Source: an uncultured Eubacteriales bacterium (GTDB lineage: Bacteria; Bacillota; Clostridia; Oscillospirales; CAG-272). From it: a DNA stretch of 64,000 nt. Positions 9,145-55,408 of this stretch are shown in pieces. The notes below the pieces were generated by a model. It searched no databases, was not told the origin of the DNA, and worked only from the letters and a program-made list of their open reading frames with translations. Both the position numbers and the translations under genes were made by a program. The stretch covers positions 3,240-67,239 of the forward strand of contig CAJKPX010000007.1 in the NCBI GenBank assembly GCA_905201895.1, in the 5' to 3' direction. Every line of letters begins with the position of its first letter. The first letter of the stretch is position 1.

Positions 9145-9236
9145 GGAGAAGTACTCAAGAGGCCGAAGAGGCGCCCCTGCTAAGGGTGTAGGCCGGGTTT
9201 ACCGGCGCGAGAGTTCAAATCTCTCCTTCTCCGCCA
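9145..9236 (+). tRNA. tRNA-Ser (anticodon GCT), class II with long variable arm, CCA encoded
   Basis: Manual fold: acceptor GGAGAAG/CTTCTCC, D arm CTC..GAG, anticodon stem CGCCC/GGGTG with loop CTGCTAA, long variable arm, T arm GAGAG-TTCAAAT-CTCTC, 3' GCCA. Confidence 0.9.
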
Positions 9237-27200: not shown

Positions 27201-29879
27201 TTTGGTGACGTAGTTATCACCGAGGAATGTACGCGAGATCGACGAGAAGGATTTTCTTGTGTTGTCCTTTTCCTCCTCTTCCTCTCCCGTCACAGTGGGC
27301 TTGGGCATCGATTTCTTAATCCGAGTCAGACCGCCCTCCTCCGATGCATTTGCCTGCGCATTGCGCTCTGCAAAGGAGTCGAACATCTTCTTATAGGTGC
27401 GGTAGAATTTCTTCGCGTAGCCGGAAAGCCGCTCATTCGGATCATTCGATGCATTCTTGAAGAAATTGAGAATCTTATCCTTGAGGGTAGGCTCCACCTC
27501 AAGAAGCTTTTCAAGCACGTTTTTGTTGCCGAGGATGTCCTCTGCATGATATGCGCTGATCTCGTCAAGATAGAGCTCTGTGCGGCTCACGTCGGTATCC
27601 TGATCGGCATACGCCGCAATGATCTTCTCTTGAATCTCGGGCGATACGCGCTTGAGCGCCTCCTTGTATGGGATAACGGCATGAACCTTGCCATCCTTTC
27701 CGAGATACTGTCGGATCGCATGGTCAAGCTCGTGGATCAGAATGCGCTCCGCGCCTCTCTTGGAGTTGGGATTTACCACAAAGCGATTCTTCTCCCCGTC
27801 ATAGAGTGCGCTCTCTCCCTCCTTGAGCGAGGAATCGAACACAACGTCAACGCCCGACCGAGCGGATACTCTCGCGTACAGAAGCGCATCGGCATCGCTG
27901 ATGCCTTTTGCCTTTGCATCGCGGATCACCTTGCGGATCATTCCCTTGTTCGGCTCGTTGAGCTCGGAATAGCCGTCCACGTTCTCTCTCGCATAGGTGT
28001 CTGCCTCTGCCGCTTCTCGTTGGAGTCGAGCGGCTTCATCGACCTGCTTCTGCACGTCTTCCATGATTGCAGTTTTTTCGGTGTTGTAGGATGCGAGGCG
28101 TTTGTTCACGTCGGATGCAGTAAGGCTCTTGGTGGTGTATCCGCTCTTGTAATCGTGGATCAGATACGAATCGCCATCTTTGGAAACGCCAATGTCGAGG
28201 CTTCCGTCGGTGTATCGGGCAGATTGACCGTTCTTGAGGTTGATCCGCTTGGGAATCGATCTCGCAGACTCCGCAGGGATTGCTTGGAGCATCTTGGTGC
28301 GCTCTCTTGTGCTGACGTTCTGCTGAACGCCACCGTTCTCAATGAATTGCTCAATCTTTTTGGCAAAGGAATCCGAATCGAGGCTTGCCCAGCTATCAAT
28401 GCCAAGAGCCTGCGACACCGCATTGATCTCCTGCGAGGTTGCCGTCTCCAAAAATCTGTTGAAATCCACCTGCGAGGCAAGCTTTCTTCCTGCGAGCGTT
28501 GCATGGGTGAATTGCGCAGAATCAAGAAGCAGCTTACCCGTTGCATCCGACACCGCAAGGCTACGAAGCGTTTCGTTCTCGCGCAGTGCCTTGTAGATGG
28601 AGGACGGATTGCTTGGATCATATCCCTTCGTAATCTCTTCTGCGGTGACAGAGTATGTCTGTCCCGTTGTCTTGTGCTTGTATCCGTATTCCGAGAGTCT
28701 CTGTGCCACCTGCGGCGCGTTGCTAACAATGTTCAAGGCTCTCTGTGCCACAAACATATTTGCAGACGTTGCCACATTCTGCCGATAGAGGTCACCGAGA
28801 AGCTTCTTCTGTGTCACGGTGACCACCTGACCGCCCGTCTGCTGCAGGCTCTGCGAGAGCTTGTTTCGCGTATCCTCAATGGTCTTGAACACCTCGTCAT
28901 CCACGTTGTTTTCGGTTGCCCAAGAAGAAAGATCGTTTGCAGTGTTGAGCACCTCGGTAGCACCGCCTCTGTTGGCGATATTCGTGCCCTTTGCAAAGCT
29001 TGTGCCGGAATCAAACACAACGCCGGTGCCGCCCATGACCACGCCGCTCAAGCCGCCTACAAAGCCCGAATAGAGCACCTCTTGAGGCGTTGCAAATGCC
29101 GCGCTTGGGTCATAGGTCATGCGCTTCCATACGGGATCAAGGATCTCGGAGGTTGCTTCCTCAAAGAATTCTCCTGCGAAGCTCGATGCGAGCGTTTTCA
29201 AAGCGCCCTGCTTTGCCACCGTCTTTGCGGTCTCCTTTCCGAGAGCCTTTGCAAAGCTCTTTACAACCGCACCGCCTCCGAGCGACAATGCCGTTGTTAC
29301 GCCCTCCAGAGAGCCCTCTGTAAAGCCCGACAAAGCACCGTATCCGTAGGTCTTTGCATCGAGGTTGCCCGTTTCCTTGTAGGCACTCTTAACGGCGTTA
29401 CCTGCCGCGCCAAGACCCGAAGTGACCGCCGCGCCAAGAGGTGCAAGAGCCGCCGCAAAGCTTCCTGCTCCCGCTCCGCCCGTGGCAACAGTGATTGCGG
29501 TAGCGGCGATAAGACCGGGCAAGCTCGTTCCAATGCCGCCTGCAACATCTCCCGCCGTCTTCATGAATCCGCTCGGATTGTACCATTCTTCGGGATGGCT
29601 ATACCAATCGCCAAACCAATCGTTTGCGATGATATCCTCCGCCCACTCATCGTTCCCAAAAAGCTTTGCCAAGCCGGAGGTGACGTAGTCGACACCGCCC
29701 TCAATGCTAGACACAAATCCTACGGCGAGCTTTTCGGCAAGGAAACCGAGACCGCCAAGCAGACCACCGTTGTTGGTGGTCGCTTGTGTGTTTGCGGTCT
29801 GGCTTGAGGCATTCCAATTCGTGTATAAAGTTTTTTGCTTCTCCACCTTTGGCGAAGAAGAAAAGGAATAGATTGCCAT
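21228..29879 (-). CDS. Giant (2883 aa) virion-associated multidomain 'polyvalent'-type protein with HExxH zincin motif
   Basis: Single uninterrupted ORF between the portal-proximal gene and the scaffold. Gly/Ala-rich hydrophobic N-terminus, an ILIHELDHAIRQY (HExxH) segment, a Cys-containing globular middle (QPCRECYVESMRKN), a coiled-coil (KKLKAEAKEVNKRAKELDKKIKEF) and a large C-terminal region. Confidence 0.6.
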   Translation of the reverse strand: MAIYSFSSSPKVEKQKTLYTNWNASSQTANTQATTNNGGLLGGLGFLAEKLAVGFVSSIEGGVDYVTSGLAKLFGNDEWAEDIIANDWFGDWYSHPEEWYNPSGFMKTAGDVAGGIGTSLPGLIAATAITVATGGAGAGSFAAALAPLGAAVTSGLGAAGNAVKSAYKETGNLDAKTYGYGALSGFTEGSLEGVTTALSLGGGAVVKSFAKALGKETAKTVAKQGALKTLASSFAGEFFEEATSEILDPVWKRMTYDPSAAFATPQEVLYSGFVGGLSGVVMGGTGVVFDSGTSFAKGTNIANRGGATEVLNTANDLSSWATENNVDDEVFKTIEDTRNKLSQSLQQTGGQVVTVTQKKLLGDLYRQNVATSANMFVAQRALNIVSNAPQVAQRLSEYGYKHKTTGQTYSVTAEEITKGYDPSNPSSIYKALRENETLRSLAVSDATGKLLLDSAQFTHATLAGRKLASQVDFNRFLETATSQEINAVSQALGIDSWASLDSDSFAKKIEQFIENGGVQQNVSTRERTKMLQAIPAESARSIPKRINLKNGQSARYTDGSLDIGVSKDGDSYLIHDYKSGYTTKSLTASDVNKRLASYNTEKTAIMEDVQKQVDEAARLQREAAEADTYARENVDGYSELNEPNKGMIRKVIRDAKAKGISDADALLYARVSARSGVDVVFDSSLKEGESALYDGEKNRFVVNPNSKRGAERILIHELDHAIRQYLGKDGKVHAVIPYKEALKRVSPEIQEKIIAAYADQDTDVSRTELYLDEISAYHAEDILGNKNVLEKLLEVEPTLKDKILNFFKNASNDPNERLSGYAKKFYRTYKKMFDSFAERNAQANASEEGGLTRIKKSMPKPTVTGEEEEEKDNTRKSFSSISRTFLGDNYVTKEGKGAEEISVEEFKSIDYRETEGYRNYVQECLDNMRQSIPDFNEQDARKEIEDSIQGIVDVAVAMKEAGYDIIDDPTWRENGEVRKDSKKRALFSSLEPNSDYFTSSDISTICDKRKNFAEIYDDIVREEERRGVPESKRFFKNVDNYFYIHKVLADKGLTQPCRECYVESMRKNLAPMAEAFRTLITESNESNTSNPQLYEQSGKKKGQLKSNNSETRKFVRDALAEYEVSPESITIDMLSTEDGLATLKIQMPLVYEAFNSFYGQSKPKMPRGATPFRFGELTALLTKDDGTINKSLVKKIASTGGFRLQSYSDFQIQNFVDVLQVLFEAGTLGLTGHAYTKVPAFLEATKNTNLKRNISIFMYNDEGVWKIDRNDSFPMSLEEIYKVVDSDKSGNTGIIAVSQNEKMAAWVMANDDVAYFIPFHKSGVKMGTVRETIVREGGREILGYADIKDHTRQQSEVYADTADGHKANTKVKKPIDIYSFWDFENTENLSQKDLIKKNLTAYIDECKKAGYKPKFREYVENNASVLKNILRYGKELGYLTEDATIDDISFEHGGYRIPYGYYKCLVDYNLFTPDGKASPAERLSLKNYKFDEAVEFFKDSEKLRRTELLQQFANDGERQKYAKLAAEGMSNAELEKVIRQKRQEVVSEILDQGNSKSVRKAIDFEPVSHNTGYAPSADAYSYESLTKKRDLSVVTFPTELPMTENGKVDTNAVVARGRLNARKQKNPNNTETSTYVRVDDIGLDVLLSKNGMTHGIARSQETAFAVMKIGDVLKNSVAVNELNGSATRKAEMSYVLLGACRDSENLYVVRSVVSKLENNVTEIDVYQLSAVKGKKTETPTSALGGTAVTEQSSLISSESPIVSIADFLEYVKSIPLSNEVFSEDVAKKLGVERTKGTLSGDIRYAIDIDEAIEATRASISMEEESYKPSKRDKAFSLWTQFQIAVTNEQAGIEVIGKQLGIKDIESKVQAVRAARTEANEMIGGQQMRIGVSADKDNMDTLVQGEGLIPIMNPITKQGEKVTADFFGYLFHKHNLSRMTLKKRSMEWHQADIDNLKKDVAKINALKKEIDALEKQIAALGRTRHDMEIKKGLRERVKKLKAEAKEVNKRAKELDKKIKEFMPLEDKPVIGWTKDEDGHIIPTTPGEDATPVTAEESEELVARYEKDHPEFAEQAEKLWGFLKNLNQYRVDTGLLSKDNFDYLAELYPHYVPTYRVDTKKGIGATEGKYNMAVKTTVKTAKGSTKRLQNPDKIIARQVMETIVAGRVNQLANALYDASVEKGDTTHIEVVSRKKMTPEEAAAYDPTEHRPKDNEITFFKDGERITIRVSKEIFAGFDAFSPKTDIGNPLIDLVSASNKLFKRGVTSLNPAFLLRNTIRDIQDAGINTRFGKTFLKNYAIAQKEIATNGKYWQLYRAYGGFASTVFDFEKGTDGSQNSWGLTKAEGNIVKKTMTTIENANSFVEQLPRLAEFISSIEAGNSVEQAILDSADVTTNFARGGKLAKALNRTVMPFLNPSIQGFSKMVRNVTAVRTVKEAAILALKATIVGIAPMVLNMIMNGDDEDYKKLRDSDKENNFLIKAGDTFIKIPRGRVASALGGLVNRSVEAAQGEVVDWKDYADNVLQQVSPVDSMTRTILSPFFDVATNTTWYGTAIEGRQFENVAPKDRFDENTSVIAIAIAKAHDFVGLEASPKKIHYLLDQYSGVIGDFILPATTPKEEKDFFTGNFTLDPVMSNKLSTRFYDIYDEAQYADTAGDDTAKYQVRYLNRVKKAISNMYKEKSKTQNNSELSRAEKLEQTRVIQVLINKAYETAIDDYELMTKAIEATSSIEEEDIRFAEAYRLVYGAQASLEQYNKDVYEKMQYLNKGGVDYDSLYSFYFGTRGITSDKDRKGNTIAGSKRKKVVSYINKLGLSRNQKLLLIASMGYSPADGDVVGMDAESAKKSLLRYILTLKGASKEERAEIASICGFETKNGAILNTFHAKTA

Positions 29880-29891
29880 AATGCCTCCTTG

Positions 29892-32800
29892 TTAGAATTT
29901 GTTATCGTTGTTGCCCTCGTGCTCAAGGACCGTGGTGCTGTTGTGGGGGATGTTTTCGTTCTTGCCTTTGATTATTCCAATCAACTCTTTAATATTATAA
30001 ATTCCGATTGGTTTTCGCCACATTCCCCGATCATAAATATAGACATCGTTTCCGCCCCAAACAACCAGATTTCCTTCTTTGGGATTTGGAATGGCTATTT
30101 TTAAAAGATCAGAAATCGTATTGTCCGCAACATCAGTTCTTGTCATTAGGTAGTCCTTGCCATTCGACAATGAGAAGTAGTAGTTTCCGCCGTCAAGATA
30201 TGTGTTTCCGGTCACATCATTAGAAAGATGAACCATTTTTGTCGCAAGATCTTTCTTAATTTGTTTGGCGTGCCTCTCTGCGATTTTGTGGTCTTTTTCA
30301 AGGGTAGATACACTATTTACAAAAGCAGAGAGTTCTTCATCCGTATTAACATCCTTTATCTGGCTCTCAAGTGCGGAAGCATAATAGTTCTGATATGTTC
30401 CGTGATCAATCGTCTTCGCGCCGTATGCCGACTCAATAGCATCAACAAACGACTCAAAGTCACCGCTCTCAATGTACGATTCGATATCTTCCACGATTTT
30501 CGCATCTCGCTCAGCTTTCAATGCATCCACATCCTCTTGGGTGAGACCCTCATCCAGCAAAGATTCGATCTCCGTATCCGTAGTGTCGGATGTCACCATG
30601 CCCTTGTAAGCATCGACAATGCCCTGATGCTCCGCTTCTGCCTCATCCAGCTCGGCTTGCTCCGCTTCCTCGACAGAGGTGGCGTAATCATCTGCCGCTC
30701 CCTCAATCGCGCGAATCTGATCCTCGGAGAGACCAAGATCACGTGCCAACTGCAGTGCTTGCTCCTTGGTGTAGCTTCCGGAGTTTACACCCTCAAGAAG
30801 CGATGCAAAATCTCTGGTTGCTTGGGTGCTCTCATTCCTGGTGCCTTCAAGATAGTCAAGCCAGCTGCTCGTTTCGGTCTCGCGCTTGGCATCCGATGCG
30901 GCTTTGTCAGACTTCATCTTGTCAATCTCGGCATTTGTCATGCCCTCGTTGTAAGCCTTGTTCGCATCCGCTACGGACTGCTTGTGTGTTGCATTTGCCT
31001 CCGCATCCGCTTTAATCTTGTCAAGCCCTGCCTGGGTTGCGGTTTCGTTGTATTCCATGTTCGCGTTATGCTCTGCGGCATCTCTTTCGAGGTTGGCGGC
31101 GTAGAAACCCTCCTCATATTTGCGGTTCGCATCCGCTACGTCTTTGGTATAATTGCTTTCCGCCGTATACTGATTTTGACGGTGAGCAGAATCCGCTCCA
31201 AGCACCTTATTGTCATGCTCTCTTTGCGCATTGTAGATCGCGTTGTCGCGCTCACTCTCCGCACCAAGAAGATTGGTCTGATAGGTGGTATCGATCTCGT
31301 AATTTCGATTGATTCTGTTGATGTCAGCTTGATGCATCCGTTGCAGATATTCCGCTTCGGCTTGACGTTCTGCCTCGCTTTGGACATATCCTGCCTCACG
31401 CTTTACGCCTGCCGCTTGAGCATTTGCCGCTTGAGTCTCCGCTCTTTGCATAGCATATGCTTGGTTATCAAGATACGCGCTATATCCACCCGCATTGAGC
31501 CCCATGCTTGCCATCTGCTCCGCTTTTGACCCGTAGGTAGCAAGGCTCTGCTCGTAGGAATTACGCGCATCAATCACGGCTCTTTCGCGCTCTCGATCCG
31601 CATCCGCAACAGCCTTATCATATGCGGCTTTGGCGGATTCGGCGGCGTTTTGCTTGAGTTGCGCGGCAAGACCGACGTCCTTGTTGTAAATATCGTCCGA
31701 CATCGTCTTTCCGGTGGCAAGTTGAGTATCGAGCGCGGTCTTGATCTTGTCAAAAGCATCTTCGTGGTATTCCGTATCCTTCTGCAAACGCTCTGCGGCG
31801 GCAAGATAAACGGCATCACGCTCCACGTTTGACATCGACAAGAGAATAGCCTTCTGATCCTCTGCAAGCGAAATTCCGTCCTCAAGCATCTTTGTGATGT
31901 AATCTATAGTTGTGCTATAGTTATTCTCTGCATAATCGATTTCGGCGGTTTTCTTTTGCCCTGCATATTCCATGATCTTATCGTAGGTCTCCTGCGACAA
32001 GCTATCCAGAATCACTTTGATATCATTTGCAATAGCAAGGTCTGTTCCGCGGTTTTCTGTGAGAGCGGCTACAAGCTTATTAAACACCGCTTGACCCAAT
32101 GCCATATCCGAGTTGTATTTCTCATTTGCAAATGCAAGAAGAGCATCGTATTCTGCTTGTCTCGTGGATTCGGTCATGGTCGGATCGACAGATGTTCCCG
32201 CAGGGGAAGTAGAAGTGCCGGCAGCAACCTCTGTATTTGCTCCAGCCCCGTTTTCCGTGGTGTTAGTTTTAACCTCTTCACCCTCATCATCTCCTTGGAT
32301 GTATGGAGTCGCTGTTTGATCGTCAACAGGACGATCAGCCTTTTGATCAAGCCCTGCGAGCACCTCGGCGGTCTCCTTGTCATTCTCCTTGGTTACATCG
32401 CTTGTACCTGGCTTTTCCGTTTCAGAAGCGATGAATTCCTCATAGGTCATGGGAGGGGCTTCCACTTCTTCGCTCATTGTAGGAGCATTGTCGGGTGCAT
32501 TAGGGTATCCGTTTCCTACCGTGGTATTTCCGGACTGATTTGAACCTACCTCGTTATGATCGTTTTGCGGCTCGGTCGGTGTGGTAGGCGTTGTCGGCTC
32601 GGCATCTCCGTTTACATAATCGCCGTAGGATGTATTATCCGTAGTCGGCTTGGAAGGAGGATTGCTCGGCGTGTTGTTTTCTGGAACAGACGGTGTGCTT
32701 GTAGTGCCTGCTCCAGCCGTTGCTCCAGCCGCTCCGTTTGTCGGTGTGGTGGGCGTGGTAGGAGCCACATTGCCAAAATCGGGGTTCGGGTCTCTTGATT

Positions 32801-33629
32801 GGGGAGGGAGATTGGCGGCAGGGTCTTCCGTTTTCGGAGCATCCGCGTTTACGTAGTCTCTTCCGTATGTCGCGTTTCCACTCAATTCGGGGTTGGGGTC
32901 TACCAACTGCTGCGGCAGGTTCTGCTTCGGATCTTCTGCCGTTTCTTGTTTTTCTCCAAGATTTGGATTCGGGTCTACCAACTGAGGAAGCAAATCTTGT
33001 TTGGGGTCTTCTGCTTTAGAGTCTCCGTTTACATAATCGTTTCCGTATGTAGGAGTCGGCTCCGTCAATTGCGGATTAGGGTCTCTAAGCTGAGGATGGA
33101 CTTGCGGCTCTTCCTTTTTCTCCGGCTCCGATGAAGGTGTAGTAGGTGTAGTGGGAGCGGAAGCGGAAGGAAAAGGAAAAGGGAGTGTAGTAGGTGTAGT
33201 AGGTGTAGTAAGAGTAGTAGGTGTAGTAGGAGTGTAAGGGAAAGGAAAAATAGGTGTGGTAGGTGTAGTAGGAGCGGCGGGCTCGGTTTTTTTACTATCC
33301 GTAGCTTCATCTTCCATGCTCCAACGCGTTTCTGCATTAGAGGTGTCGAATTCTTTCGCCTCGCCCACCTTGAGCCCAGCCAATGCATATGCATCGGCGT
33401 TGACCGATCCCGTGCGCTCAAGACCATTGTTTTTCTGCCAAGCGCGCGTGGCGATCTGGGTGATCTTGTCAAATACTCCGCTCGCAGTGACACCATAGCC
33501 CTGCGACATGAGATATTCTTGCCACTTTTTGACCTCTGCGCCCTCCGCGCCGAGAGAAAGCAAAAAGCCCTGACCACTGTTTCCCGCGCCGGCGTTGCCG
33601 GTCTCGATGCCGTGGTTTACGATTGCCAT
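29892..33629 (-). CDS. Large (1245 aa) virion protein: N-terminal peptidoglycan-binding domain, P/T-rich repeats, long coiled-coil
   Basis: N-terminus (EVKKWQEYLMSQGYGVTASGVFDKITQIATRAWQKNNGLERTGSV) matches PG_binding_1-type repeats. This is followed by TTPTTP runs and DPNP(Q/N/E/D)(L/F) repeats, then an Ala/Glu/Asn-rich helical region. Confidence 0.55.
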   Translation of the reverse strand: MAIVNHGIETGNAGAGNSGQGFLLSLGAEGAEVKKWQEYLMSQGYGVTASGVFDKITQIATRAWQKNNGLERTGSVNADAYALAGLKVGEAKEFDTSNAETRWSMEDEATDSKKTEPAAPTTPTTPIFPFPYTPTTPTTLTTPTTPTTLPFPFPSASAPTTPTTPSSEPEKKEEPQVHPQLRDPNPQLTEPTPTYGNDYVNGDSKAEDPKQDLLPQLVDPNPNLGEKQETAEDPKQNLPQQLVDPNPELSGNATYGRDYVNADAPKTEDPAANLPPQSRDPNPDFGNVAPTTPTTPTNGAAGATAGAGTTSTPSVPENNTPSNPPSKPTTDNTSYGDYVNGDAEPTTPTTPTEPQNDHNEVGSNQSGNTTVGNGYPNAPDNAPTMSEEVEAPPMTYEEFIASETEKPGTSDVTKENDKETAEVLAGLDQKADRPVDDQTATPYIQGDDEGEEVKTNTTENGAGANTEVAAGTSTSPAGTSVDPTMTESTRQAEYDALLAFANEKYNSDMALGQAVFNKLVAALTENRGTDLAIANDIKVILDSLSQETYDKIMEYAGQKKTAEIDYAENNYSTTIDYITKMLEDGISLAEDQKAILLSMSNVERDAVYLAAAERLQKDTEYHEDAFDKIKTALDTQLATGKTMSDDIYNKDVGLAAQLKQNAAESAKAAYDKAVADADRERERAVIDARNSYEQSLATYGSKAEQMASMGLNAGGYSAYLDNQAYAMQRAETQAANAQAAGVKREAGYVQSEAERQAEAEYLQRMHQADINRINRNYEIDTTYQTNLLGAESERDNAIYNAQREHDNKVLGADSAHRQNQYTAESNYTKDVADANRKYEEGFYAANLERDAAEHNANMEYNETATQAGLDKIKADAEANATHKQSVADANKAYNEGMTNAEIDKMKSDKAASDAKRETETSSWLDYLEGTRNESTQATRDFASLLEGVNSGSYTKEQALQLARDLGLSEDQIRAIEGAADDYATSVEEAEQAELDEAEAEHQGIVDAYKGMVTSDTTDTEIESLLDEGLTQEDVDALKAERDAKIVEDIESYIESGDFESFVDAIESAYGAKTIDHGTYQNYYASALESQIKDVNTDEELSAFVNSVSTLEKDHKIAERHAKQIKKDLATKMVHLSNDVTGNTYLDGGNYYFSLSNGKDYLMTRTDVADNTISDLLKIAIPNPKEGNLVVWGGNDVYIYDRGMWRKPIGIYNIKELIGIIKGKNENIPHNSTTVLEHEGNNDNKF

Positions 33630-37541: not shown

Positions 37542-37570
37542 TTGACATACCCGATGGAGTATGCTATAAT
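37542..37570 (+). promoter_or_regulatory. Consensus sigma-70 promoter with A/T-rich UP-like element driving the plus-strand moron cassette
   Basis: TTGACA (37542-37547), 17-nt spacer, TATAAT (37565-37570), preceded by AAAAATTTTTTAAACTTTTTTTGAAAAA. Confidence 0.7.
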
Positions 37571-39118: not shown

Positions 39119-39349
39119 TTAGTCCTCCTCTGTCAGTTTGTTGTAATCGATCACAATGCTTACAGGTATCGGTCGCCTATGCTCCATAAACATACCGATC
39201 TGAGTCGCAAGCACGTCCGACGGCTTGATCTGAGATAGCCGACAAAAGCGTGACGGTCTCTGTACATTGCCGGACGGATTCGTGATAAACGTGCATTGAT
39301 CACAGATGGGTGTGTTTCTGTTTGCACAGTCTTTGCATTCAAACTTCAT
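39119..39349 (-). CDS. Cys-rich small protein (zinc-ribbon-like)
   Basis: 76-aa ORF. N-terminus is CKDCANRNTPICDQC. Confidence 0.45.
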   Translation of the reverse strand: MKFECKDCANRNTPICDQCTFITNPSGNVQRPSRFCRLSQIKPSDVLATQIGMFMEHRRPIPVSIVIDYNKLTEED

Positions 39350-39575
39350 GGTTTTCTCCTTTCCTTGCGAGTGCGATGAGCTCCCGCATTTTTTTATAGT
39401 TTATTTTTTTTGCAATTGAGTCGATGGTGGCAAGGGTCATGCGCGAGATCTCCTCCTCTGACTTGCCGAGCCTCAATCCGAGAGGCAGGACGGCATTGTT
39501 CCGTACAACCGCGAAAAGCACAACCTCAAGCCTCTCCAGCTTTCTCTGCAGGCGTTCAACCTCTCCCATGATCAT
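39339..39575 (-). CDS. Hypothetical small helical protein
   Basis: 78-aa ORF overlapping its neighbours on both sides. Confidence 0.4.
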
Positions 39576-40009
39576 CTCCTACCCGTGCTCCCTATGCCGC
39601 CTCTGTTGGCGTTTCCAAGACTCTCTACGGTGACAATCTTGAGCCTCGGTTGATGCTTGATGATGCGAAACTGACAGATTCGGTCTCCGCGCAGGATCAT
39701 GGTGTCGCGGACGGCATACGCGAGGAAATTCCACTCGTCATCGTCGCCCTTGTAGGATTCATCAATGATTCCGATGCTATTTGCGAGCATGATGCCGTGC
39801 TTGGCAAATGTGCTTGACCGAGGCGCGATGAGCGCCTCATATCCCTTTGGGAGTTCCATCGCTACACCGAGCGGGATGCGGGCATACTGTCCAGCCATAA
39901 TCTTGACGTCCTCGGCGGCGCGTAGGTCGATCCAATCCCCCACGGAGATCTTGGCGATCGGTTCAATGACTGTGCGGTGTTTGATGTACTTGATTTTGAT
40001 TGTTTTCAT
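39572..40009 (-). CDS. dut: dUTP diphosphatase (trimeric dUTPase)
   Basis: 145-aa ORF with motifs [25 protein letters not shown] and C-terminal RGGIGSTG. Confidence 0.85.
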
Positions 40010-40057
40010 TTTATCCTCCTTTTTTCATTACAATTGTGAATGGTGATACGTTTGCTT

Positions 40058-40765
40058 TCATGTCTCTCCCTCCATACACTCTCTTAATGATTCCTTGATG
40101 TAATAGTCGATTTCAAGCTTCTTGCAAAGATTCTCCGCTTCTCTACCAAATTTCGCCCAGTCTATATCCGATGGATGATAGTTAAGTTTTCCAATCTTGA
40201 CCTTGTTGACATAAGGCGCTACCACACCGATAAGAGCCAGAACATTCTCGGCGTTTACCACAGGCTCAAACGATACCCATGTTTTGATGCCTATGCGGTG
40301 CGCCTCTATTAGCGAGCAGACCAGCTCCTCCATCGAGGATGCATAAGGATTGCCTTCTCCGCCGTCAAGCGTGACTCCATACCAGTCCTCGCTATCGAGA
40401 AGATCGAACACTCGCTGGGCATCCGCGCCGTTCTTGGTAAGGATTTGAATGTGGTTTCCTGCTTGCTTCAAAGCAAAGATGATGTCTCTAGTCGGGGATA
40501 TGTTTATCGCACCTCTCGGGAATGGGTCGCAGGTAAAGCACAGATGAACCAACTTTCCTGTGATCTTCTCTCGCTTTAACTGATTTATAACCTCATCCAC
40601 GATATTTTCTCTCGGTCGTACATCCGAATGAAACTTCTCCCGCTCCCTGTGAAGAACATTCGGTGCAAAGCAGTAAAAGCATCTGTGCGGGCATCCAGTG
40701 TATATGTTGATGGCAAGATCGCCATACTCTTTAGCTTTGCCTCTCGGTTCATAAATCGGCTTCAT
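40058..40765 (-). CDS. Radical SAM enzyme (SplB/COG1533-like small family)
   Basis: CPHRCFYC (CxxxCxxC) cluster about 25 aa from the start. ~235 aa. ATG overlaps the stop of the upstream methyltransferase (ATGA) and is preceded by GAAGGAGAAAGAG. Confidence 0.7.
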   Translation of the reverse strand: MKPIYEPRGKAKEYGDLAINIYTGCPHRCFYCFAPNVLHREREKFHSDVRPRENIVDEVINQLKREKITGKLVHLCFTCDPFPRGAINISPTRDIIFALKQAGNHIQILTKNGADAQRVFDLLDSEDWYGVTLDGGEGNPYASSMEELVCSLIEAHRIGIKTWVSFEPVVNAENVLALIGVVAPYVNKVKIGKLNYHPSDIDWAKFGREAENLCKKLEIDYYIKESLRECMEGET

Positions 40766-41256
40766 GTCTCTTTCTCCTTCATAAAGCATAGCCAATTTGT
40801 GTTCATTTTCTTTCCGGAATGGTGACCAAACAAAGGTTGATAACCTATTGCATTAATGATTTCCGGAGTCGGAATCTGTATCTCCGACCACTTAAACACA
40901 AGCACTCCATCTGTCTTTAGAACCCTCATGCATTCGGAGAACCCTCTCACAATGTTGTCAAGCATTTCTTCTTTGGTGTCATATGTTCCGTACCTCTTTG
41001 CGATCCACGAATCCTTTAGACCAAATCTATGAGGAGGATCAAAGACCACAAGGGAGAATGTGTTATCATCGAATGGGAGATCCGTGAAGTCCCCGACAAC
41101 ATCAGGGTGAATAATAGTGTGCCTTGTTCTTGGAATCTTTCCAAATGTTTCCTCATACTCAACATCTCTGCGGTCAAAGTAGATCGCAAGAGGATGCTTT
41201 TTGTTAAACCAGATTGATCTTGCGCTGCAAGTTACATCAAGTATTTTCTTTTTCAT
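40762..41256 (-). CDS. Small SAM-dependent methyltransferase with DPPH motif (N6A/N4C DNA-methyltransferase-like)
   Basis: 164 aa from MKKKILDVTCS. LVVFDPPH is catalytic motif IV of amino-methyltransferases, and RVLKTDGVLVFKW is also present. RBS GAGGAGGAGAAC. The open frame extends to 41376. Confidence 0.6.
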   Translation of the reverse strand: MKKKILDVTCSARSIWFNKKHPLAIYFDRRDVEYEETFGKIPRTRHTIIHPDVVGDFTDLPFDDNTFSLVVFDPPHRFGLKDSWIAKRYGTYDTKEEMLDNIVRGFSECMRVLKTDGVLVFKWSEIQIPTPEIINAIGYQPLFGHHSGKKMNTNWLCFMKEKET

Positions 41257-41746
41257 TTTTGTTCTCCTCCTCATATTCTTCGCAGCTTCCGAACACATTC
41301 GGCTCGCAAGACACCATGTGTTTGCAAGTCGGGCATTCTTGCGGAATGTATTTCTTTTTGAGTTCGGCAATATCATCGCGTTGTATTATAGAGCAATTAT
41401 TCCAATACAAGTGTGCGTCACACAATCTCTCAATCTCCGCAAAAATCTCCCTCGCAACCTCGGCTTTGGCTTGCTCATAGTGCATCTTGTAAGAGTTTGC
41501 CGCTCCGCGCATCGCTTCATATTCCACGGTCACACGCTCAACTTCTGATTTGATTTCTTTCAATCTTCCAAGTTGTTCTTTCTGCATCTCCAAAACCTCG
41601 CTCTTTGGTACAACATCGGCAGGTGGCAATTTGCTAATTTCGTCTGCTGATGCAAAAATTCCGTATGAAAAAGATAGCGGATATTTTGCTATACAAGCAC
41701 CTCGCAAATGCTTTATCAAATCTTCTCGCTTGATATATTCGTCCAT
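41237..41746 (-). CDS. Hypothetical coiled-coil protein with C-terminal Cys motif
   Basis: Start at MDEYIKRED, preceded by AAAGGCGGAGAA. C-terminus is CPTCKHMVSCEPNVFGSC. The N-terminal extension shown in the ORF track looks spurious. Confidence 0.45.
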   Translation of the reverse strand: MDEYIKREDLIKHLRGACIAKYPLSFSYGIFASADEISKLPPADVVPKSEVLEMQKEQLGRLKEIKSEVERVTVEYEAMRGAANSYKMHYEQAKAEVAREIFAEIERLCDAHLYWNNCSIIQRDDIAELKKKYIPQECPTCKHMVSCEPNVFGSCEEYEEENKNEKENT

Positions 41747-41747
41747 A

Positions 41748-41858
41748 TCATTCTCCGCCTTTCTTGGCTTTCTCTGCTTCCTCGGCTTCCTTGTATGTCT
41801 TGCCGTTTCCAAGCACGCAATAGGTACACCATGATTTGGTGTATTCACAGATAGGCAT
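41748..41858 (-). CDS. 36-aa Cys-rich mini-protein ending in KKGGE
   Basis: Not in the ORF track. MPICEYTKSWCTYCVLGNGKTYKEAEEAEKAKKGGE, RBS AAAGGTGAAAACC. The stop is 1 nt before the next ATG. Confidence 0.4.
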   Translation of the reverse strand: MPICEYTKSWCTYCVLGNGKTYKEAEEAEKAKKGGE

Positions 41859-41898
41859 TTGGTTTTCACCTTTGATTCTCTGATAACTGCACATTCGT

Positions 41899-42126
41899 TC
41901 ATTCCTCCTTTATGTCATATACTCTGTCAAGTGATACTTTCATCACTTTGCCGTTCGATTGAACAAAGGCATAATCGTTGAAAAGCCCCGATACAATCTC
42001 TATGAGTTGGTATCTTTTGGTTTTATAACCGCACTTTGAACAATCGGGGTGCTGATTGTAATAGTCCGTTGTGTCCGCACACATCTTACACTCTCCGTAT
42101 GATGGTTTAACTTTGCAAGTTCTCAT
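41899..42126 (-). CDS. Cys-rich small protein
   Basis: 75-aa ORF containing CKMC...CSKCG. Start overlaps the upstream stop within a conserved junction. Confidence 0.45.
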   Translation of the reverse strand: MRTCKVKPSYGECKMCADTTDYYNQHPDCSKCGYKTKRYQLIEIVSGLFNDYAFVQSNGKVMKVSLDRVYDIKEE

Positions 42127-42341
42127 TCCGCACCGCCTTTCTCAAAAACAACAGTAAACCTATCAGCGGGGCAAAAAGCACAATTTCCGCAATCATCAAT
42201 CAAAATCAAACTGCCATCTTCTGTTATTGCAAATGTGTCTATGTCGCAGTATATAAGATGCTTCGCCCAATCTTCCGTCAATGCAATTTTCTCGCAATCG
42301 GGTTCTTTGCCTGTTTTGTTATCAATCACAGTAAAGCTCAT
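42123..42341 (-). CDS. Small protein ending in EKGGAE
   Basis: 72-aa ORF with a CGNCAFC motif and the conserved junction at both ends. Confidence 0.45.
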   Translation of the reverse strand: MSFTVIDNKTGKEPDCEKIALTEDWAKHLIYCDIDTFAITEDGSLILIDDCGNCAFCPADRFTVVFEKGGAE

Positions 42342-42529
42342 TCCGCACCGCCTTTCATTTCTGAAAGCATTTGTTTTTCAACAGTTTCTGCAATTTCTCG
42401 GGCTAACTTCAAGGCGCATTTACGGCATAAGCAAATAGCGGTATTTTGGTATGTTTTCTTGAACATCTTTTTTTCTTTGACCGCAAAACCGCAATCGCAA
42501 CAAAGCATATAATTTCCTCGTTGTTTCAT
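42338..42529 (-). CDS. Cys-rich small protein ending in MKGGAE
   Basis: Start at MKQRGNYMLCCDCGF (ATGA overlap with the upstream stop). Also contains CLCRKC. Confidence 0.45.
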   Translation of the reverse strand: MKQRGNYMLCCDCGFAVKEKKMFKKTYQNTAICLCRKCALKLAREIAETVEKQMLSEMKGGAE

Positions 42530-42816
42530 TCCGCACCGCCTTTCATCTTCGGTGGTTCGGGAATAGACATCCAATGGGTGATAGTTCCTTCGCCGAAACC
42601 GTCAATCTTGTTATAATAAAGAATGCACACCAAACTTTGACCTTCGATATTACAATGTGTTAAATATCTTCCGTTCCGTTCAGGCAACCTCTCCTCAACG
42701 CTGATCCACTTGTTGCTTGGAATCGAGCCGGATCGGCGCATTGCAAGCTCGCACATAGAACACATATCCTCCCTTTTGCAAGATAGGCACGGATTAAATG
42801 CAATTATATTTCCCAT
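42526..42816 (-). CDS. Small protein ending in MKGGAE
   Basis: 96-aa ORF with a CLSCKREDMCSMC motif. Confidence 0.45.
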   Translation of the reverse strand: MGNIIAFNPCLSCKREDMCSMCELAMRRSGSIPSNKWISVEERLPERNGRYLTHCNIEGQSLVCILYYNKIDGFGEGTITHWMSIPEPPKMKGGAE

Positions 42817-42935
42817 TACTCCGAACCGCCTTTCATCTGCTCTTTGAGTTCCTTGACAATATTCTCAAATAATTCTTTAGTGTAAGTAAGGTATTTCCAT
42901 TCCACATATAACTCCATCGCATTTTCGTATATCAT
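42816..42935 (-). CDS. 39-aa helical mini-protein ending in MKGGSE
   Basis: Start at MIYENAMELYV (TAATG overlap with the upstream stop). The longer frame in the ORF track is not supported by an RBS. Confidence 0.35.
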   Translation of the reverse strand: MIYENAMELYVEWKYLTYTKELFENIVKELKEQMKGGSE

Positions 42936-43261
42936 TACTCCGCTCCTTTCATTTTTGCTCCGCAGTTGGGGCAGAATTTGTATCCGTATGGTCGAACGTC
43001 TTTGTAAAAGTAACCGCATCCTTTCACCTTACAAATATGCGAATAAAAATTAAACGTATCTGCGCCGGCATTGCAGAGCGTCGTTTCCCACTCTCCCTCG
43101 ACTTGCTTGCGGTAGCCATCGTCAAACAACTCTCTTGCCATGCCCTCGGAATTTACACCAATAAAACCTCCGTTGATAATATCCACCACACTGTTGTGCA
43201 TTATGGCTTCGCCTATGTCTTTATCCATCTCCTCGATGGCTTGCTTTTCATTCTCTTTCAT
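42935..43261 (-). CDS. Small protein with C-terminal zinc ribbon, ending in MKGAE
   Basis: 108-aa ORF containing CKVKGCGYF...FCPNCG. Confidence 0.45.
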   Translation of the reverse strand: MKENEKQAIEEMDKDIGEAIMHNSVVDIINGGFIGVNSEGMARELFDDGYRKQVEGEWETTLCNAGADTFNFYSHICKVKGCGYFYKDVRPYGYKFCPNCGAKMKGAE

Positions 43262-43273
43262 CGTTTGCTCCTT

Positions 43274-43573
43274 TCATTTCCACTCTTTCATAGAGTCCAT
43301 AATCGCCTGGTAATTCTCTCGCACCTCTCTTGGAGTCATTTTTCTGACTTCTTCGGGAGAGAAATGCTTCTTGCTTTCCCCGTTCACCAGCACAACCATC
43401 ACGTTGTCACAAGCAATGACGCGCTTTACGTGCATTCGGTTGATCGGATCGTCACGCTTGATCCCTCTGACTGTGCCTTCGTATAGGCGCATTCTGTTTA
43501 TGCGCCGGTTTTCATCTTCAATGATGATCTCTTCGTCCCTATCCATCGCGTGGATAAGCTGTGATACTCTCAT
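43274..43573 (-). CDS. Hypothetical small protein
   Basis: 99-aa ORF overlapping the upstream gene stop. Confidence 0.45.
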   Translation of the reverse strand: MRVSQLIHAMDRDEEIIIEDENRRINRMRLYEGTVRGIKRDDPINRMHVKRVIACDNVMVVLVNGESKKHFSPEEVRKMTPREVRENYQAIMDSMKEWK

Positions 43574-44121
43574 AACTTGCTCCTTTCCTTATCCCTCTTG
43601 GCTTCAATCAGCGGCAAAAAGTATTTCTTTTCGGCATCCTCGCGGGCTTGAATCGCCTCGCGAATATCGTGATAGCTGCCGAGGTATATGCATTTCTTTT
43701 GAACGTAGATAATAGCCTTCCAAACGCCTTTGTGCTTCTCCCAATACACGCCTTTGTGACCGCTTTTATTATTTTTTTGCGGATTTTGTCTTTCGATGAT
43801 TTGAAAGTTTGTGCGAAACGCAGCGTTGGTCTCGATCCGCTCTTTTGAGTTTTCGACAATGATGTCCAGCGCACGCTCGCGCCGAAGGCATCCGCAGCTT
43901 TTCGACCTGCCGCATCTGATGGAACCGGCTTTGACGTTCCGCACGGTGCCGCAATCGCAACGGCACTCGTAGTAGAGAAACCGCCCCTTGCGAAACTCGC
44001 CCAGGATCGTCCACCTTCCTGCCTTTTGACCGATCATTGTTTCCATTTCCGATTCTTCAATGCCAGAAGGGAGTCCCTTTTCGGATAGCAAACCTTCGGG
44101 CAGTTTCCTTTCTTCCTGCAT
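43570..44121 (-). CDS. AP2-domain DNA-binding protein with N-terminal Cys cluster
   Basis: SGHKGVYWEKHKGVWKAIIYVQKKCIYLGSYHDIREAIQAREDAEKKYF is a typical AP2/ERF-type (HNH-associated) domain. It is preceded by CRCDCGT...CGRSKSCGC. Confidence 0.65.
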   Translation of the reverse strand: MQEERKLPEGLLSEKGLPSGIEESEMETMIGQKAGRWTILGEFRKGRFLYYECRCDCGTVRNVKAGSIRCGRSKSCGCLRRERALDIIVENSKERIETNAAFRTNFQIIERQNPQKNNKSGHKGVYWEKHKGVWKAIIYVQKKCIYLGSYHDIREAIQAREDAEKKYFLPLIEAKRDKERSKL

Positions 44122-44158
44122 TTTGCGCAGGGATTTTGTGGTTGGCTCATGCTTCCTC

Positions 44159-45174
44159 CTAAAACTTCATTTTCAACTGCAAGGGCGTGTCTGCAAGGTA
44201 GCCCCACTTCCATGGATCTTCTGGCGAGATCAAACCTTCATCCTCCATGGCAAACCGCGCGTCAAAGTCGTGTACGGTTCTTCCGTCCGGCTTGAACGAT
44301 ACGGGGCTATCCAAATCCCACTTGAGAAGCAACGCCCACAGATCGGGGTAATTCTTTCGCAGCAGACGCAACTGACCAACGCTTTGATTATGACAAAACC
44401 AGCAGCCGTCTCGCGTTGCCGTGGTGTAAACGGGAGATAGCAGGTTTTGATAGCCCGAAATCAGACCACACAAATCCTCATCCCATCCGATCTCCACCAA
44501 AGGAAGGACAATGTTCGGCCTGCCGATATGCTTTGCAATGCGCTTCGTCTCGTCCGCCGCAATGCCGAGATACTGAATGATATTTATTTTGCGCCCCTCA
44601 TTCTTGGGGCTTTCGGAAAAGATGTTTTGCATCTTCAACCTGCTTTGACACCAATTGCCCGCTCGAAATGGGAATCCGTACATCGTCCCATTCCTTTTTC
44701 CGCTCGAAAATAGACTGTAGAATATATCTTCGTATGTCAACTTTCTCGAATTTGAGCTTCTTGCACCAAGATCCTTTAACGCATGGGAATCCTTTGAGGT
44801 TTCCGACCCACCTACCTCCCGAAACCGTTCGGTAGAACATGGATTCGTAGCATTCACGCCGCACTTTGTGCTCTCTCTCTCTCTACTTGAACATTTTGTG
44901 AAGTCTTCTGCGTGGCGCAGATATGCTCAACCTCGATGCCGTAAAGCTCCTTGATGGTCTGATCGGCTTCTTTCTTCCACTCCCACATCGGTGGCAGATC
45001 GGCAGGAATATCCTGCGTTGCCCAGACATCCGATGTCACTATGCGGTGCAAAGGCAAGCCAAGCAGCTTGATCGCTCGGAGCATTGCAAGGCTATCCTTG
45101 CCGTGCGAAATGCAAGCCACACAAATCGTGTTTGGATCGTAAAGAGTGTCATAAATCTCTTGTACCCAAGCCAT
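44159..45174 (-). pseudogene. PAPS-reductase-family (PP-loop ATPase) gene disrupted by a frameshift
   Basis: The N-terminal 106-aa frame carries the PP-loop-like ACISHGKDS and stops just after a (AG)7 run. The C-terminal 232-aa frame (YGFPFRAGNWC...DGCWFC) continues in another frame. A third frame carries a second GFPxxxGxWC copy. Confidence 0.6.
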
Positions 45175-45217
45175 TCCATTTCTCCTTTTTTGTTATTGCA
45201 GTTCTCGCAGGTTGAGG

Positions 45218-45880
45218 TCATTTTTCCACATTTGATTCCGATAGAGGTTTTCCGCTCTCCACGATGACCAGCTTGAAATCTCCCGATTGATAGATCACCT
45301 TCCCGATGTTATCCTTGAAGGTCGCGTTTTCGGAAAGAATCAAAGAAGATTGCTTTTTCCAATCAGAATAAAGAGAATTGAAAATAATCGCAGAGCCCCA
45401 AGCCTTCACGGATGCAGAGTCCCAAGCCTTCACGGATGCAGAGCCCCAAGCCTTCACGGATGCAGAGTCCCAAGCCTCCACGGATGCAGAGCCCCAAGCC
45501 TCCACGGATGCAGAGCCACTTATTTCAACGTCCTTGCAATCCTTGATGTAGTATTTCGTGCCGGTTTTCAGTCTCAATCCGTTTACGCCAACAAAGATAT
45601 GAGACTTTGCCCATTCCTTCACCGCCTCAACTGCCATCGGCTTGTATTCCTCGTCGGAATACCATTCCGGACGAATATCCTGATCGACACATAGATTCCA
45701 CGTGTCAATATCAGAGAAAGGGTCTCCGTACTCCGGAGAAAGCTCAAGCCGAACAAACTTTTTTGAAGCACCGAGATAATCATCCTCGATCCCCAGCTCC
45801 TTCAACATATCCGAGTGGCTATCTGCATCAGCCATATAAATACGCCCCTTCAGAGCGATCATAGATTTCAATTTACACAT
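45218..45880 (-). CDS. Hypothetical protein with SASV(E/K)AW(G/D) octapeptide tandem repeats
   Basis: 220-aa ORF, RBS GGAGGATTTGAAAA. Five-plus tandem 8-aa repeats lie in its centre. Confidence 0.55.
   Translation of the reverse strand: MCKLKSMIALKGRIYMADADSHSDMLKELGIEDDYLGASKKFVRLELSPEYGDPFSDIDTWNLCVDQDIRPEWYSDEEYKPMAVEAVKEWAKSHIFVGVNGLRLKTGTKYYIKDCKDVEISGSASVEAWGSASVEAWDSASVKAWGSASVKAWDSASVKAWGSAIIFNSLYSDWKKQSSLILSENATFKDNIGKVIYQSGDFKLVIVESGKPLSESNVEK
45390..45518. repeat. 24-nt tandem repeat x ~5.4 (coding)
   Basis: GCAGAG(C/T)CCCAAGCCT(T/C)CACGGAT repeated head-to-tail. Encodes the SASVxAWx repeats on the minus strand. Confidence 0.9.
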
Positions 45881-54938: not shown

Positions 54939-55408
54939 TTTTGTATCAAAATTACAGTCATTAGCCAAGGAATGAAGGTGTTACCGCTAGGTGACACCTT
55001 CATTTTTTCGTGGTAAAAGTGCATGATGCAGAGCTCCGCAAAAGCCGCTAAAGGCGGCGTTGCCAGAGCGTGCTCAGAAATTGAGTAAAGGGCTACAACA
55101 GCATAACAGCGCACGCCGAAGTCCATAAACTCTTCTTGGTTTATCCCCTTTTCGCCATACTCTGCCACCGTCAAGCCACTTTTCCTCCCCTTTGTACCAC
55201 ACTCCGCCACCGTCAATCACTCTCTGCCGCCGTCGGTCACTTTTTTGACATCTTGCACCACTTTTTTCCACCCCTCACCCCTTTTTCACCCCTCTTTTTT
55301 GAAATTTCACCCCTACGGGGTGGAGCAAAAATCGGGACGGTTATGATAAAATGATATCAGCAAAGAAGTTTGCCCAGATTCATTCTTGATTTGAAAGGAG
55401 CTTGTAAG

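Follow-up and report, generated by a model that had tools for sequence, protein, structure and literature searches.

A methyltransferase gene and a radical SAM gene that overlap in a prophage operon look like independent accessory cargo

A small methyltransferase gene and a radical SAM gene that overlap on the minus strand of the 64,000-nucleotide stretch of DNA analysed here (the window) raise the question of whether their products act in sequence on a nucleic acid or simply share an operon. The original prediction took the former view and read the translationally coupled pair, followed by a dUTPase gene, as a candidate two-step modification module. Its gene identifications stood up to our analysis, whereas the functional coupling that it drew from them did not. 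The methyltransferase gene (41256..40762, with its ATG at 41256 and its stop at 40762) encodes a class-I SAM methyltransferase of 164 aa, and the radical SAM gene (40765..40058, ATG at 40765 and stop at 40058; its product is referred to as rSAM) encodes a stand-alone protein of 235 aa. The predicted ATGA start/stop overlap lies at 40765-40762 of the minus strand, and an AAGGAG sequence at 40779-40774 on the same strand, within the 3′ end of the methyltransferase gene, presumably serves as the Shine-Dalgarno element of the rSAM gene. The true starts of the two genes are the methionines that they share with their homologues (MKKKILD... and MKPIYEP...), so the longer open reading frames of 204 and 245 aa are upstream extensions rather than real starts. 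After a gap of 48 nt, the distance originally given, comes the gene of a trimeric-type dUTPase (40009..39572, minus strand, 145 aa), which has an AGGAGG of its own and is recognised by PF00692 (57.7 bits against a cut-off of 22), phrog_135 (E 1.5e-36) and TIGR00576 (E 1.7e-23).

All three genes belong to a tightly packed, co-directional run of accessory genes (39119..45880, minus strand), delimited from PHROG scans and the table of gene junctions. The same scans place this run between a replication and recombination module at 45.9-49.3 kb, comprising Gam, Sak4, SSB-like and RusA-like proteins and a replication initiator, and the terminase genes at 35.6-37.4 kb. Within the 39.1-45.9 kb operon, 12 of the 17 junctions overlap, eight of them by exactly 4 nt. 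Since most junctions overlap, the ATGA shared by the methyltransferase and rSAM genes is the operon's default and nothing special, and it reflects genome packing rather than partnership; the lesson is that, where phage operons are densely packed, an ATGA junction is no evidence that two proteins work together. A single long transcript would cover the run, which would belong to a temperate siphovirus-type prophage, probably of a gut or rumen Clostridia host; nearly every gene in it has its ribosome-binding site and start codon within the tail of the preceding gene. Promoter- and terminator-like sites show no excess in the 39119..45880 run, and the G+C minimum of the window (0.435-0.446) falls at 40-44 kb.

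The question was decided by the company that the two genes keep elsewhere, co-occurrence being a check that had been proposed together with the original prediction. We examined 164 rSAM-centred loci (80 from IMG/VR, four from nearest relatives and 80 from GTDB genomes) and 53 methyltransferase-centred loci (49 from IMG/VR and four from nearest relatives), scoring only flanks of ±4 kb (±3 kb for four loci). The methyltransferase family gave one strong match in the 164 rSAM loci (in L164, with 54% identity, 1.7 kb upstream and not adjacent) and two further marginal ones, the 53 methyltransferase loci held no rSAM gene, and an adjacent pair was found in none of the 217 other loci. Because the two families are unlinked in other genomes, the reading of the pair as a coupled two-step module fails. 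The closest relatives tell the same story: rSAM proteins with 84% and 77% identity are encoded behind unrelated ORFs of 108 and 89 aa, again with a 4-nt overlap, while the genes of methyltransferases with 83-85% identity follow a C5 DNA methylase gene through an ATGA overlap and precede non-rSAM genes. Across the family, 110 different protein clusters share the position upstream of rSAM in 152 loci and 121 share the position downstream in 157 loci, and in these 152-157 loci rSAM has neither a fixed neighbour nor a conserved protein partner. A linkage between rSAM and the dUTPase was also considered and rejected, as just 4 of the 164 rSAM loci have a dUTPase gene within ±4 kb.

The methyltransferase is of the DPPH amino-methyltransferase type. 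The predicted LVVFDPPH motif occupies residues 69-76, and its D73-P-P-H76 core, invariant in 26 relatives, corresponds to the (D/N/S)PP(Y/F/H) motif IV of N6/N4 amino DNA methyltransferases. The protein matches the 'DNA methyltransferase' family phrog_954 (E 3.3e-57) and the generic Methyltransf_11 model (25.3 bits, above the cut-off of 21.2), while its score against N6_N4_Mtase (PF01555) is 21.2 bits, below the gathering cut-off of 26.7. From the PHROG labels and such sub-threshold DNA-methylase matches we infer that its target is DNA, and the enzyme would most likely methylate the exocyclic amine of a phage DNA base (N6-A or N4-C), a mark that would blunt host restriction. One feature sets the window's copy apart. 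In the motif I loop, the glycine loop after the first strand, it reads C-S-A-R where relatives have C-G-[SA]-R; the glycine is kept in about 99% of relatives, and CSAR was seen in this copy alone among some 120 of them. This Gly-to-Ser change, at residue 11, would fall in the presumed SAM-binding loop. The AF2 model (pLDDT 89.5) finds its nearest folds in Trm11, TrmM and Bud23 at a TM score of about 0.55, a sequence search of the PDB returned nothing meaningful, and the best matches of a BFVD fold search were uninformative, being unnamed proteins of 469-475 aa. The nearest solved folds, those of Trm11 and TrmM, are RNA amino-methyltransferases, which counts against a DNA target. Widespread in phages as an orphan enzyme, the phrog_954 family is represented by 265 cultured-phage records (A118, phig1e, A2 and others), and among the 30 of these 265 matches that were listed, none has a radical SAM gene annotated at the match. 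The literature searched yielded no target base or sequence for any phrog_954 member, and no characterisation of either this family or the rSAM family.

The second gene encodes a radical SAM protein. The predicted CPHRCFYC cluster is present as C25-P-H-R-C29-F-Y-C32 (CX3CX2C), all three cysteines are invariant in 37 aligned relatives, and the protein passes the gathering cut-off of PF04055 (35.1 against 29.5 bits); it also matches phrog_13321, a family of unknown function, with an E value of 5.8e-15. The original placement of rSAM nearest the SplB/COG1533 group, and outside QueE and viperin, holds. Its best NCBIfam matches are Rv2578c and PA0069 (E values from 5e-7 to 6e-9 over residues 18-123), although at 35.4 against 430 bits for PA0069 and 28.9 against 360 bits for Rv2578c it fails their curated cut-offs. 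QueE reaches an E value of only 0.06 and viperin is absent among the NCBIfam families listed. A 7-deazaguanine route was set aside on the QueE value and on the finding of no QueC-, QueD- or DpdA-like matches in the ORFs scanned. The AF2 model of rSAM (pLDDT 90.4) shows the alternating strands and helices of a partial (beta/alpha) TIM barrel, and the best PDB folds are those of spore photoproduct lyase (SPL; 4fhc and 4k9r), with TM scores of 0.63-0.68 normalised to the query (E 2e-5) and 0.45-0.49 normalised to SPL. SPL accounts for the top six matches; the top fold list also contains MoaA and, as the second-best fold, the peptide-modifying rSAM enzyme SuiB with its generic rSAM core (TM 0.65 against 0.68 for SPL). 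At the sequence level, the family profile gives insignificant matches to the SPL chains in the PDB (E 0.09-0.14), and the NCBIfam matches of rSAM include no SplB model.

This family is large. Its members number 4421 in 90% clusters, and at 50% identity and E<=1e-30 its profile recovers 918 clusters; of the 150 of these 918 that were listed, almost every one is a single-domain protein of about 240 aa. The relatives occur mainly in genomes of Oscillospiraceae, Acutalibacteraceae and Ruminococcus. Among the as yet unstudied enzymes of gut and rumen Clostridia phages, this family is one of the more common, and public annotations call its close members 'DNA repair photolyase'. In its own genome rSAM is an accessory gene, present in a single copy and absent from 18 genomes of the same genus except for one match at 33% identity. 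Rare relatives are fused to a Prim-Pol/primase domain (P0328) or to ParB_N (P0361 and P0362), and one (P0347) carries a LAGLIDADG intein.

How far, then, might the two enzymes still cooperate? A dedicated pathway, in which methylation would be followed by radical elaboration (or the reverse) and so equip phage DNA or tRNA with a non-canonical base, would account for two adjacent, co-directional and ATGA-coupled genes whose products both use SAM, and the example of gp53 from Pseudomonas phage M6 illustrates that SPL-like rSAM enzymes can join in DNA hypermodification (PMC8989533). We nevertheless judge it very improbable. The pair recurs at none of the 217 other loci, the nearest homologues of either gene adjoin other genes, overlap is the rule in this operon, and the window's methyltransferase deviates at a nearly invariant glycine; moreover, PHROGs or Pfam revealed no further enzyme of the known hypermodification route, such as a hydroxymethylase, 5-hmdU kinase or glycosyl/aminoacyl transferase, in the ORFs scanned. 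A hypermodification cluster of the M6 type was discarded as well, since PHROG and Pfam searches across 35.6-51 kb, where several small ORFs match nothing at all, identified no 5-hmdU kinase, aGPT-Pplase or PLP decarboxylase. A looser arrangement would have rSAM act on, or after, methylation by whichever methylase its phage carries, and perhaps convert or remove the methylated base. Here the neighbourhoods do contain a weaker signal, in that the rSAM gene tends to sit in the part of these phages where DNA methylase and ASCH genes gather: 59 of 157 rSAM loci have, within ±4 kb, DNA methylases from any of four unrelated families, and MetK is found in eight. These methylases directly adjoin rSAM in 18 loci against 10.1 expected, a number reached in 31 of 5000 permutations (P ~0.006), in a test inflated by related loci (the 157 rSAM proteins form 132 clusters at 95% identity). 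However, the other 98 of the 157 loci have none of the four families nearby, the families make different marks (m5C as against m6A/m4C), so that a common substrate is unlikely, and ASCH genes are equally enriched beside rSAM (14 against 6.4 expected), which fits simple co-location in one accessory sub-block. We accordingly regard a generic partnership with methylases as improbable.

A different possibility is that nucleic acid is not the target of rSAM, which would instead be an activase of a glycyl-radical enzyme (for example, of the host anaerobic ribonucleotide reductase) or a modifier of small molecules or peptides used in host takeover or counter-defence. At 235 aa it comes near activases in size, there are weak NCBIfam matches to NrdG (E 0.003) and to PFL-activase families (E 0.04), the neighbouring dUTPase is a nucleotide-metabolism gene, and the second-best fold, SuiB, modifies peptides. 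Yet the NrdG-type matches span the cluster loop only, the weak PFL-activase match lies elsewhere in the protein, and the 50 best PDB fold matches, headed by SPL, include no activase; an NrdG or PFL-activase role was rejected on the first and last of these grounds. No glycyl-radical enzyme was found among the prophage ORFs scanned, a dUTPase is a rare neighbour of rSAM, and the domain fusions identified are all to DNA-handling domains. On balance, a substrate other than nucleic acid appears unlikely.

The reading that we prefer is that the prophage, temperate and of the siphovirus type, probably carries the three genes in its accessory run as mutually independent cargo, each protein working alone. 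The methyltransferase and rSAM genes look like independent accessory genes, and the locus like an ordinary case of phage mosaicism in which a single orphan enzyme family is of interest. That each of the two families is abundant on its own was counted in favour of independence. Counted against it were the room that missing conserved linkage leaves for a lineage-specific interplay of the two genes here, and the room that the methylase adjacency signal leaves for an rSAM that benefits from, or acts after, DNA methylation.

We tentatively propose the following division of labour among independent proteins. The dUTPase would lower dUTP while the phage replicates, and the methyltransferase would mark phage DNA as described above. 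rSAM would bind a [4Fe-4S] cluster through C25, C29 and C32 and cleave SAM to a 5′-deoxyadenosyl radical, which would then abstract a hydrogen atom from the substrate. We infer that this substrate is most likely polymer DNA from the SPL-like fold, the position of the gene among DNA methylase and ASCH genes, and the rare ParB and primase fusions; we put it no higher than that, as the SPL fold barely beats SuiB and sequence similarity to SPL is insignificant. A stand-alone, DNA-directed role of rSAM appears plausible. On DNA it could reverse a lesion, perhaps one that packaged DNA typically acquires, or it could (de)modify a base by writing or erasing a mark. It is possible, and we offer this as a tentative suggestion, that the ~235-aa phage rSAM family, SPL-like without the donor cysteine and the terminal extensions, represents a self-sufficient enzyme, with no dedicated protein partner, whose radical reaction on polymer DNA, in phages of strict anaerobes, has yet to be described. 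The family has the fold of two radical SAM enzymes named as DNA-acting, SPL and M6 gp53; if rSAM acts on DNA, its reaction would join theirs as a third type of radical SAM chemistry on DNA, and would be a tool of the phages of anaerobes.

Comparison with known systems places the methyltransferase among the small phage enzymes of phrog_954 (Listeria A118 and A006, Rorf161 of Lactobacillus phig1e, and phage A2), which share its size of about 160 aa, show 46-52% identity over the full length and have the same invariant DPPH, F-K-W and E-C-x-R-V elements. Enzymes of the Trm11/TrmM type resemble it in combining a minimal Rossmann core with a (D/N)PP(Y/H)-type catalytic loop but, unlike it, act on tRNA and have additional domains for binding the substrate, or partner proteins; their identity to it is only 13-18%.

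rSAM can likewise be compared with SplB (4fhc, 4k9r). In both, a CX3CX2C cluster lies early in a partial TIM barrel, with a tyrosine before the third cysteine (CxxxCxYC), and in a profile alignment both have a T-x-D motif after the second barrel strand. However, rSAM is about 100 aa shorter (235 aa against ~340 aa), its cluster begins at residue 25 rather than near residue 90, and it does not have the ~340-aa SPL architecture of an N-terminal extension and C-terminal DNA-lesion-binding elements. HMM alignment sets A-A-C-T-S-D of SPL against L-C-F-T-C-D of rSAM, such that the CTSD cysteine of SPL, which we take to be the H-donor Cys140 (Cys140/141), faces the invariant F77; C76 and C79, which flank F77, are not invariant in distant family members. 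The second relay tyrosine of SPL is likewise replaced, the residue after the third cysteine of rSAM being a phenylalanine. Unlike SPL, the rSAM family is found in phages of strict anaerobes, including those of non-sporulating Bacteroidales. The COG1533 families PA0069 and Rv2578c, which provide the best NCBIfam matches, are annotated 'DNA repair photolyase' and comprise longer proteins of 317-348 aa.

A further comparison is with gp53 of phage M6, an SPL-like radical SAM isomerase that converts N-alpha- to C-alpha-glycinylthymidine on polymer DNA and whose gene shares a conserved cluster with those of a 5-hmdU kinase, an aGPT-Pplase and a PLP decarboxylase (PMC8989533). Its cluster motif starts at residue 125 as against residue 25 in rSAM. 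They are, nonetheless, both phage-encoded, SPL-like radical SAM enzymes, and gp53 shows that an SPL-like fold can install modifications in DNA (PMC8989533).

The methyltransferase gene runs on the minus strand from an ATG at 41256 to a TGA at 40762 and encodes 164 residues, with LVVFDPPH at residues 69-76. An ATGA at 40765-40762 is common to this gene and the radical SAM (rSAM) gene (minus strand, ATG at 40765 to stop at 40058; 235 residues, C25-PHR-C29-FY-C32), and a 145-residue dUTPase with unremarkable family matches is encoded 48 nt further on (40009..39572, minus strand), preceded by its own AGGAGG. Our reading of the sequence thus agrees with the original prediction on the DPPH methyltransferase, the ATGA overlap, the radical SAM motif and the downstream dUTPase. 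Longer ORFs of 204 and 245 residues appear in a mechanical listing, but homologues of both enzymes start at the same methionines as the genes described here, and the longer forms are therefore not real genes.

The window carries a prophage in a higher-G+C host: a window scan gave a G+C of ~0.49-0.52 across roughly 9-55 kb, against 0.55-0.62 outside. The tRNA-Ser (GCT) gene at 9145-9236, where G+C falls from ~0.60 to ~0.49, is the probable attachment site. On the minus strand, genes for a Gam-like protein, a Sak4-like annealase, an SSB-like protein, a RusA-like resolvase and a replication initiator (45.9-49.3 kb, in that order) are followed by a run of small accessory genes that takes in the methyltransferase, rSAM and dUTPase genes as well as an HNH endonuclease gene and a PAPS-reductase-like gene; the small and large terminase genes (35.6-37.4 kb, minus strand) come after this run, with the structural genes next. 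This gene order places the three genes in a mosaic accessory run before packaging. The lowest G+C of the window, 0.435-0.446, lies within the run at 40-44 kb, and promoter- and terminator-like sites in the run show no excess over shuffled sequence.

Several other features of the window deserve mention. The PAPS-reductase-like gene (phrog_424; 44159-45174, minus strand) is represented by a pair of ORFs, 106 and 232 residues long, with a 4-nt overlap, the second starting from GTG; PAPS-reductase-like ORFs in related phages span ~170-330 residues. The gene may have been split or frameshifted here, or two genes may be its genuine form. Four small plus-strand ORFs (70, 62, 86 and 60 residues, up to 38731) sit between the accessory run and the terminase genes, oriented against the phage operons. 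They have no family matches and are preceded by a perfect extended sigma-70 consensus (TTGACA-17-TATAAT, TG upstream) at 37542-37570 on the plus strand; the block resembles a moron that the lysogen expresses. The structural region contains a 2883-residue ORF with a large-polyvalent-protein domain (LPD38, E 2e-29) and, adjoining it, a 1245-residue ORF with a peptidoglycan-binding domain (both within 21228-33629, minus strand), the remainder of each protein having no Pfam match. Beyond the prophage, where G+C is high, two very long ORFs on opposite strands (2757 residues, plus; 1623 residues, minus) overlap at 55370-63643; no more than one of them is likely to be a genuine gene.

Methyltransferase and rSAM had been proposed to form a coupled two-step module for DNA or tRNA modification, for which linkage of the two families in other genomes was the named test. 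We compared 164 rSAM-centred loci: 80 from IMG/VR (rSAM 37-72% identical), 80 from GTDB (mainly Oscillospiraceae, Acutalibacteraceae, Ruminococcus and other Clostridia) and four representing the two rSAM proteins most closely related to this one. Across this set the methyltransferase family gave one strong match (54% identity, in locus L164, 1.7 kb away and non-adjacent) and two marginal ones. Conversely, rSAM is absent from 49 IMG/VR loci centred on the methyltransferase and from the four loci of its closest relatives. Unrelated ORFs of 108 and 89 residues precede rSAMs of 84% and 77% identity, again with a 4-nt overlap, and a C5 DNA methylase precedes, ATGA-coupled, methyltransferases of 83-85% identity. 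The slot upstream of rSAM is filled by 110 protein clusters in 152 loci and the downstream slot by 121 clusters in 157 loci; a dUTPase lies near rSAM in just 4 of the 164. Cultured phages of Bacteroides, Parabacteroides and Alistipes carry distant homologues of rSAM beside SSB and ASCH genes, with no methyltransferase gene adjacent. The linkage expected of a two-step module is therefore missing, and we regard the pair as a local accident of mosaic assembly; these are probably independent genes with no dedicated two-enzyme pathway.

Nor is the ATGA coupling informative, as the genes of this operon are packed with overlaps as a rule: from 39.1 to 45.9 kb there are 17 junctions in a row, of which 12 overlap, eight by exactly 4 nt, two by 1 nt, and one each by 11 and 20 nt. 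The ribosome-binding site of each gene is embedded in the tail of the preceding one. A sequence of ~18 nt, gaaaggcggtgcggaATGa with slight variation, recurs at four successive junctions (42123-42940, minus strand), with a looser form at a fifth, so that KGGAE, KGGSE or KGAE forms the C terminus of five small proteins in a row; a similar KGG tail ends some rSAM homologues elsewhere (EKGGAE in P0052). This repeat may be no more than the embedded ribosome-binding site, or recombination at it could help to shuffle genes.

The methyltransferase matches phrog_954 ('DNA methyltransferase', E 3e-57) and passes the Methyltransf_11 cut-off, whereas the DNA-specific N6_N4_Mtase model fails (21.2 vs 26.7 bits). 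By tblastn its family occurs in 265 cultured-phage records (46-52% identity among the matches listed), including Listeria A118/A006, Lactobacillus phig1e and A2, and Streptococcus, Vibrio and Acinetobacter phages. An AF2 model (pLDDT 89.5) shows a Rossmann methyltransferase of minimal form; among solved structures, two amino-methyltransferases, Trm11 and TrmM, and Bud23 come closest in fold (TM ~0.55). The amino-methyltransferase label is thus supported. We infer DNA as the target from family labels and context; the enzyme would then shield phage DNA from restriction by methylating an exocyclic amine in it. Around codon 11 (41224-41226), the motif I loop reads C-S-A-R, the only such case against C-G-[SA]-R in ~120 relatives, including one 88% identical. 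The Gly-to-Ser change may leave this copy weakened or inactive, or CSAR may reflect a sequencing or assembly error.

The rSAM family is abundant, comprising 4421 proteins in 90% clusters; of the clusters at 50% identity, its profile recovers 918 at E<=1e-30 and 2739 at E<=1e-10, and nearly all of the 150 clusters listed are stand-alone proteins of ~240 residues. The gene occurs once in the 2.6-Mb genome of its host and was not found in 18 genomes of the same genus, bar one 33% match; it is an accessory gene. Within 4 kb on either side in 157 loci, its commonest neighbours are DNA methylases (59 loci, from four unrelated families: beta-class N6/N4, Dam-like and two C5 types), ASCH (46), SSB (26) and MazG-like (16) genes. 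When gene order was permuted within each locus, direct adjacency exceeded expectation for methylases (18 vs 10.1; 31 of 5000 permutations reach 18) and ASCH (14 vs 6.4; 19 of 5000); SSB adjacency was 0 vs 3.6 expected. This is a loose sub-block association and not a partnership, and kinship among the loci inflates it, as the 157 proteins fall into 132 clusters at 95% identity. Fusions of the domain are rare and occur in long relatives: with Prim-Pol/primase (P0328, 1303 residues) and with ParB_N (P0361 and P0362, in two separate 50% clusters). A LAGLIDADG intein interrupts one relative, P0347; any of these forms could be a read-through artefact. Ten related loci, e.g., L173 and L031, have a second, unrelated radical SAM protein of ~311 residues (SRGCPRGCSFCHV) no more than 4 kb from the small rSAM, and eight have a SAM synthetase (MetK) at such a distance.

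The finding is thus ordinary phage mosaicism with one member of an abundant, uncharacterised enzyme family, and it is that family as a whole, more than this particular gene pair, that merits biochemical attention. We favour a DNA-directed enzyme that works without a partner, on the basis of its neighbours, the fusions and a phage precedent; granted independent genes, the chance that DNA is the substrate is roughly even. C25, C29 and C32 would ligate a [4Fe-4S] cluster, and the enzyme would make a 5'-deoxyadenosyl radical and abstract hydrogen from a nucleic-acid substrate, with the dUTPase presumably sanitising the dNTP pool.

Comparison with known radical SAM enzymes bears out the expectation that the protein is not QueE (NCBIfam E only 0.06) and is closer to the SplB/COG1533 group. 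It matches PF04055 above the cut-off and phrog_13321 (function unknown) at E 6e-15; two COG1533 families, Rv2578c and PA0069, match best of the NCBIfam models (E 6e-9 and 5e-7), though far under their cut-offs. The best fold for its AF2 model (pLDDT 90.4) is spore photoproduct lyase (SPL; 4fhc, TMq 0.68, E 3e-5), then SuiB (0.65), while a profile search of PDB sequences reaches SPL only at E ~0.09. About 65 N-terminal and ~40 C-terminal residues of SPL are absent, and profile alignment sets an invariant Phe opposite the cysteine of SPL's CTSD motif, which we take to be the H-donor Cys140. The protein is SPL-like in fold without being an SPL. The phage precedent is gp53 of Pseudomonas phage M6, likewise an SPL-like rSAM, which isomerises glycinyl-thymidine in DNA (PMC8989533).
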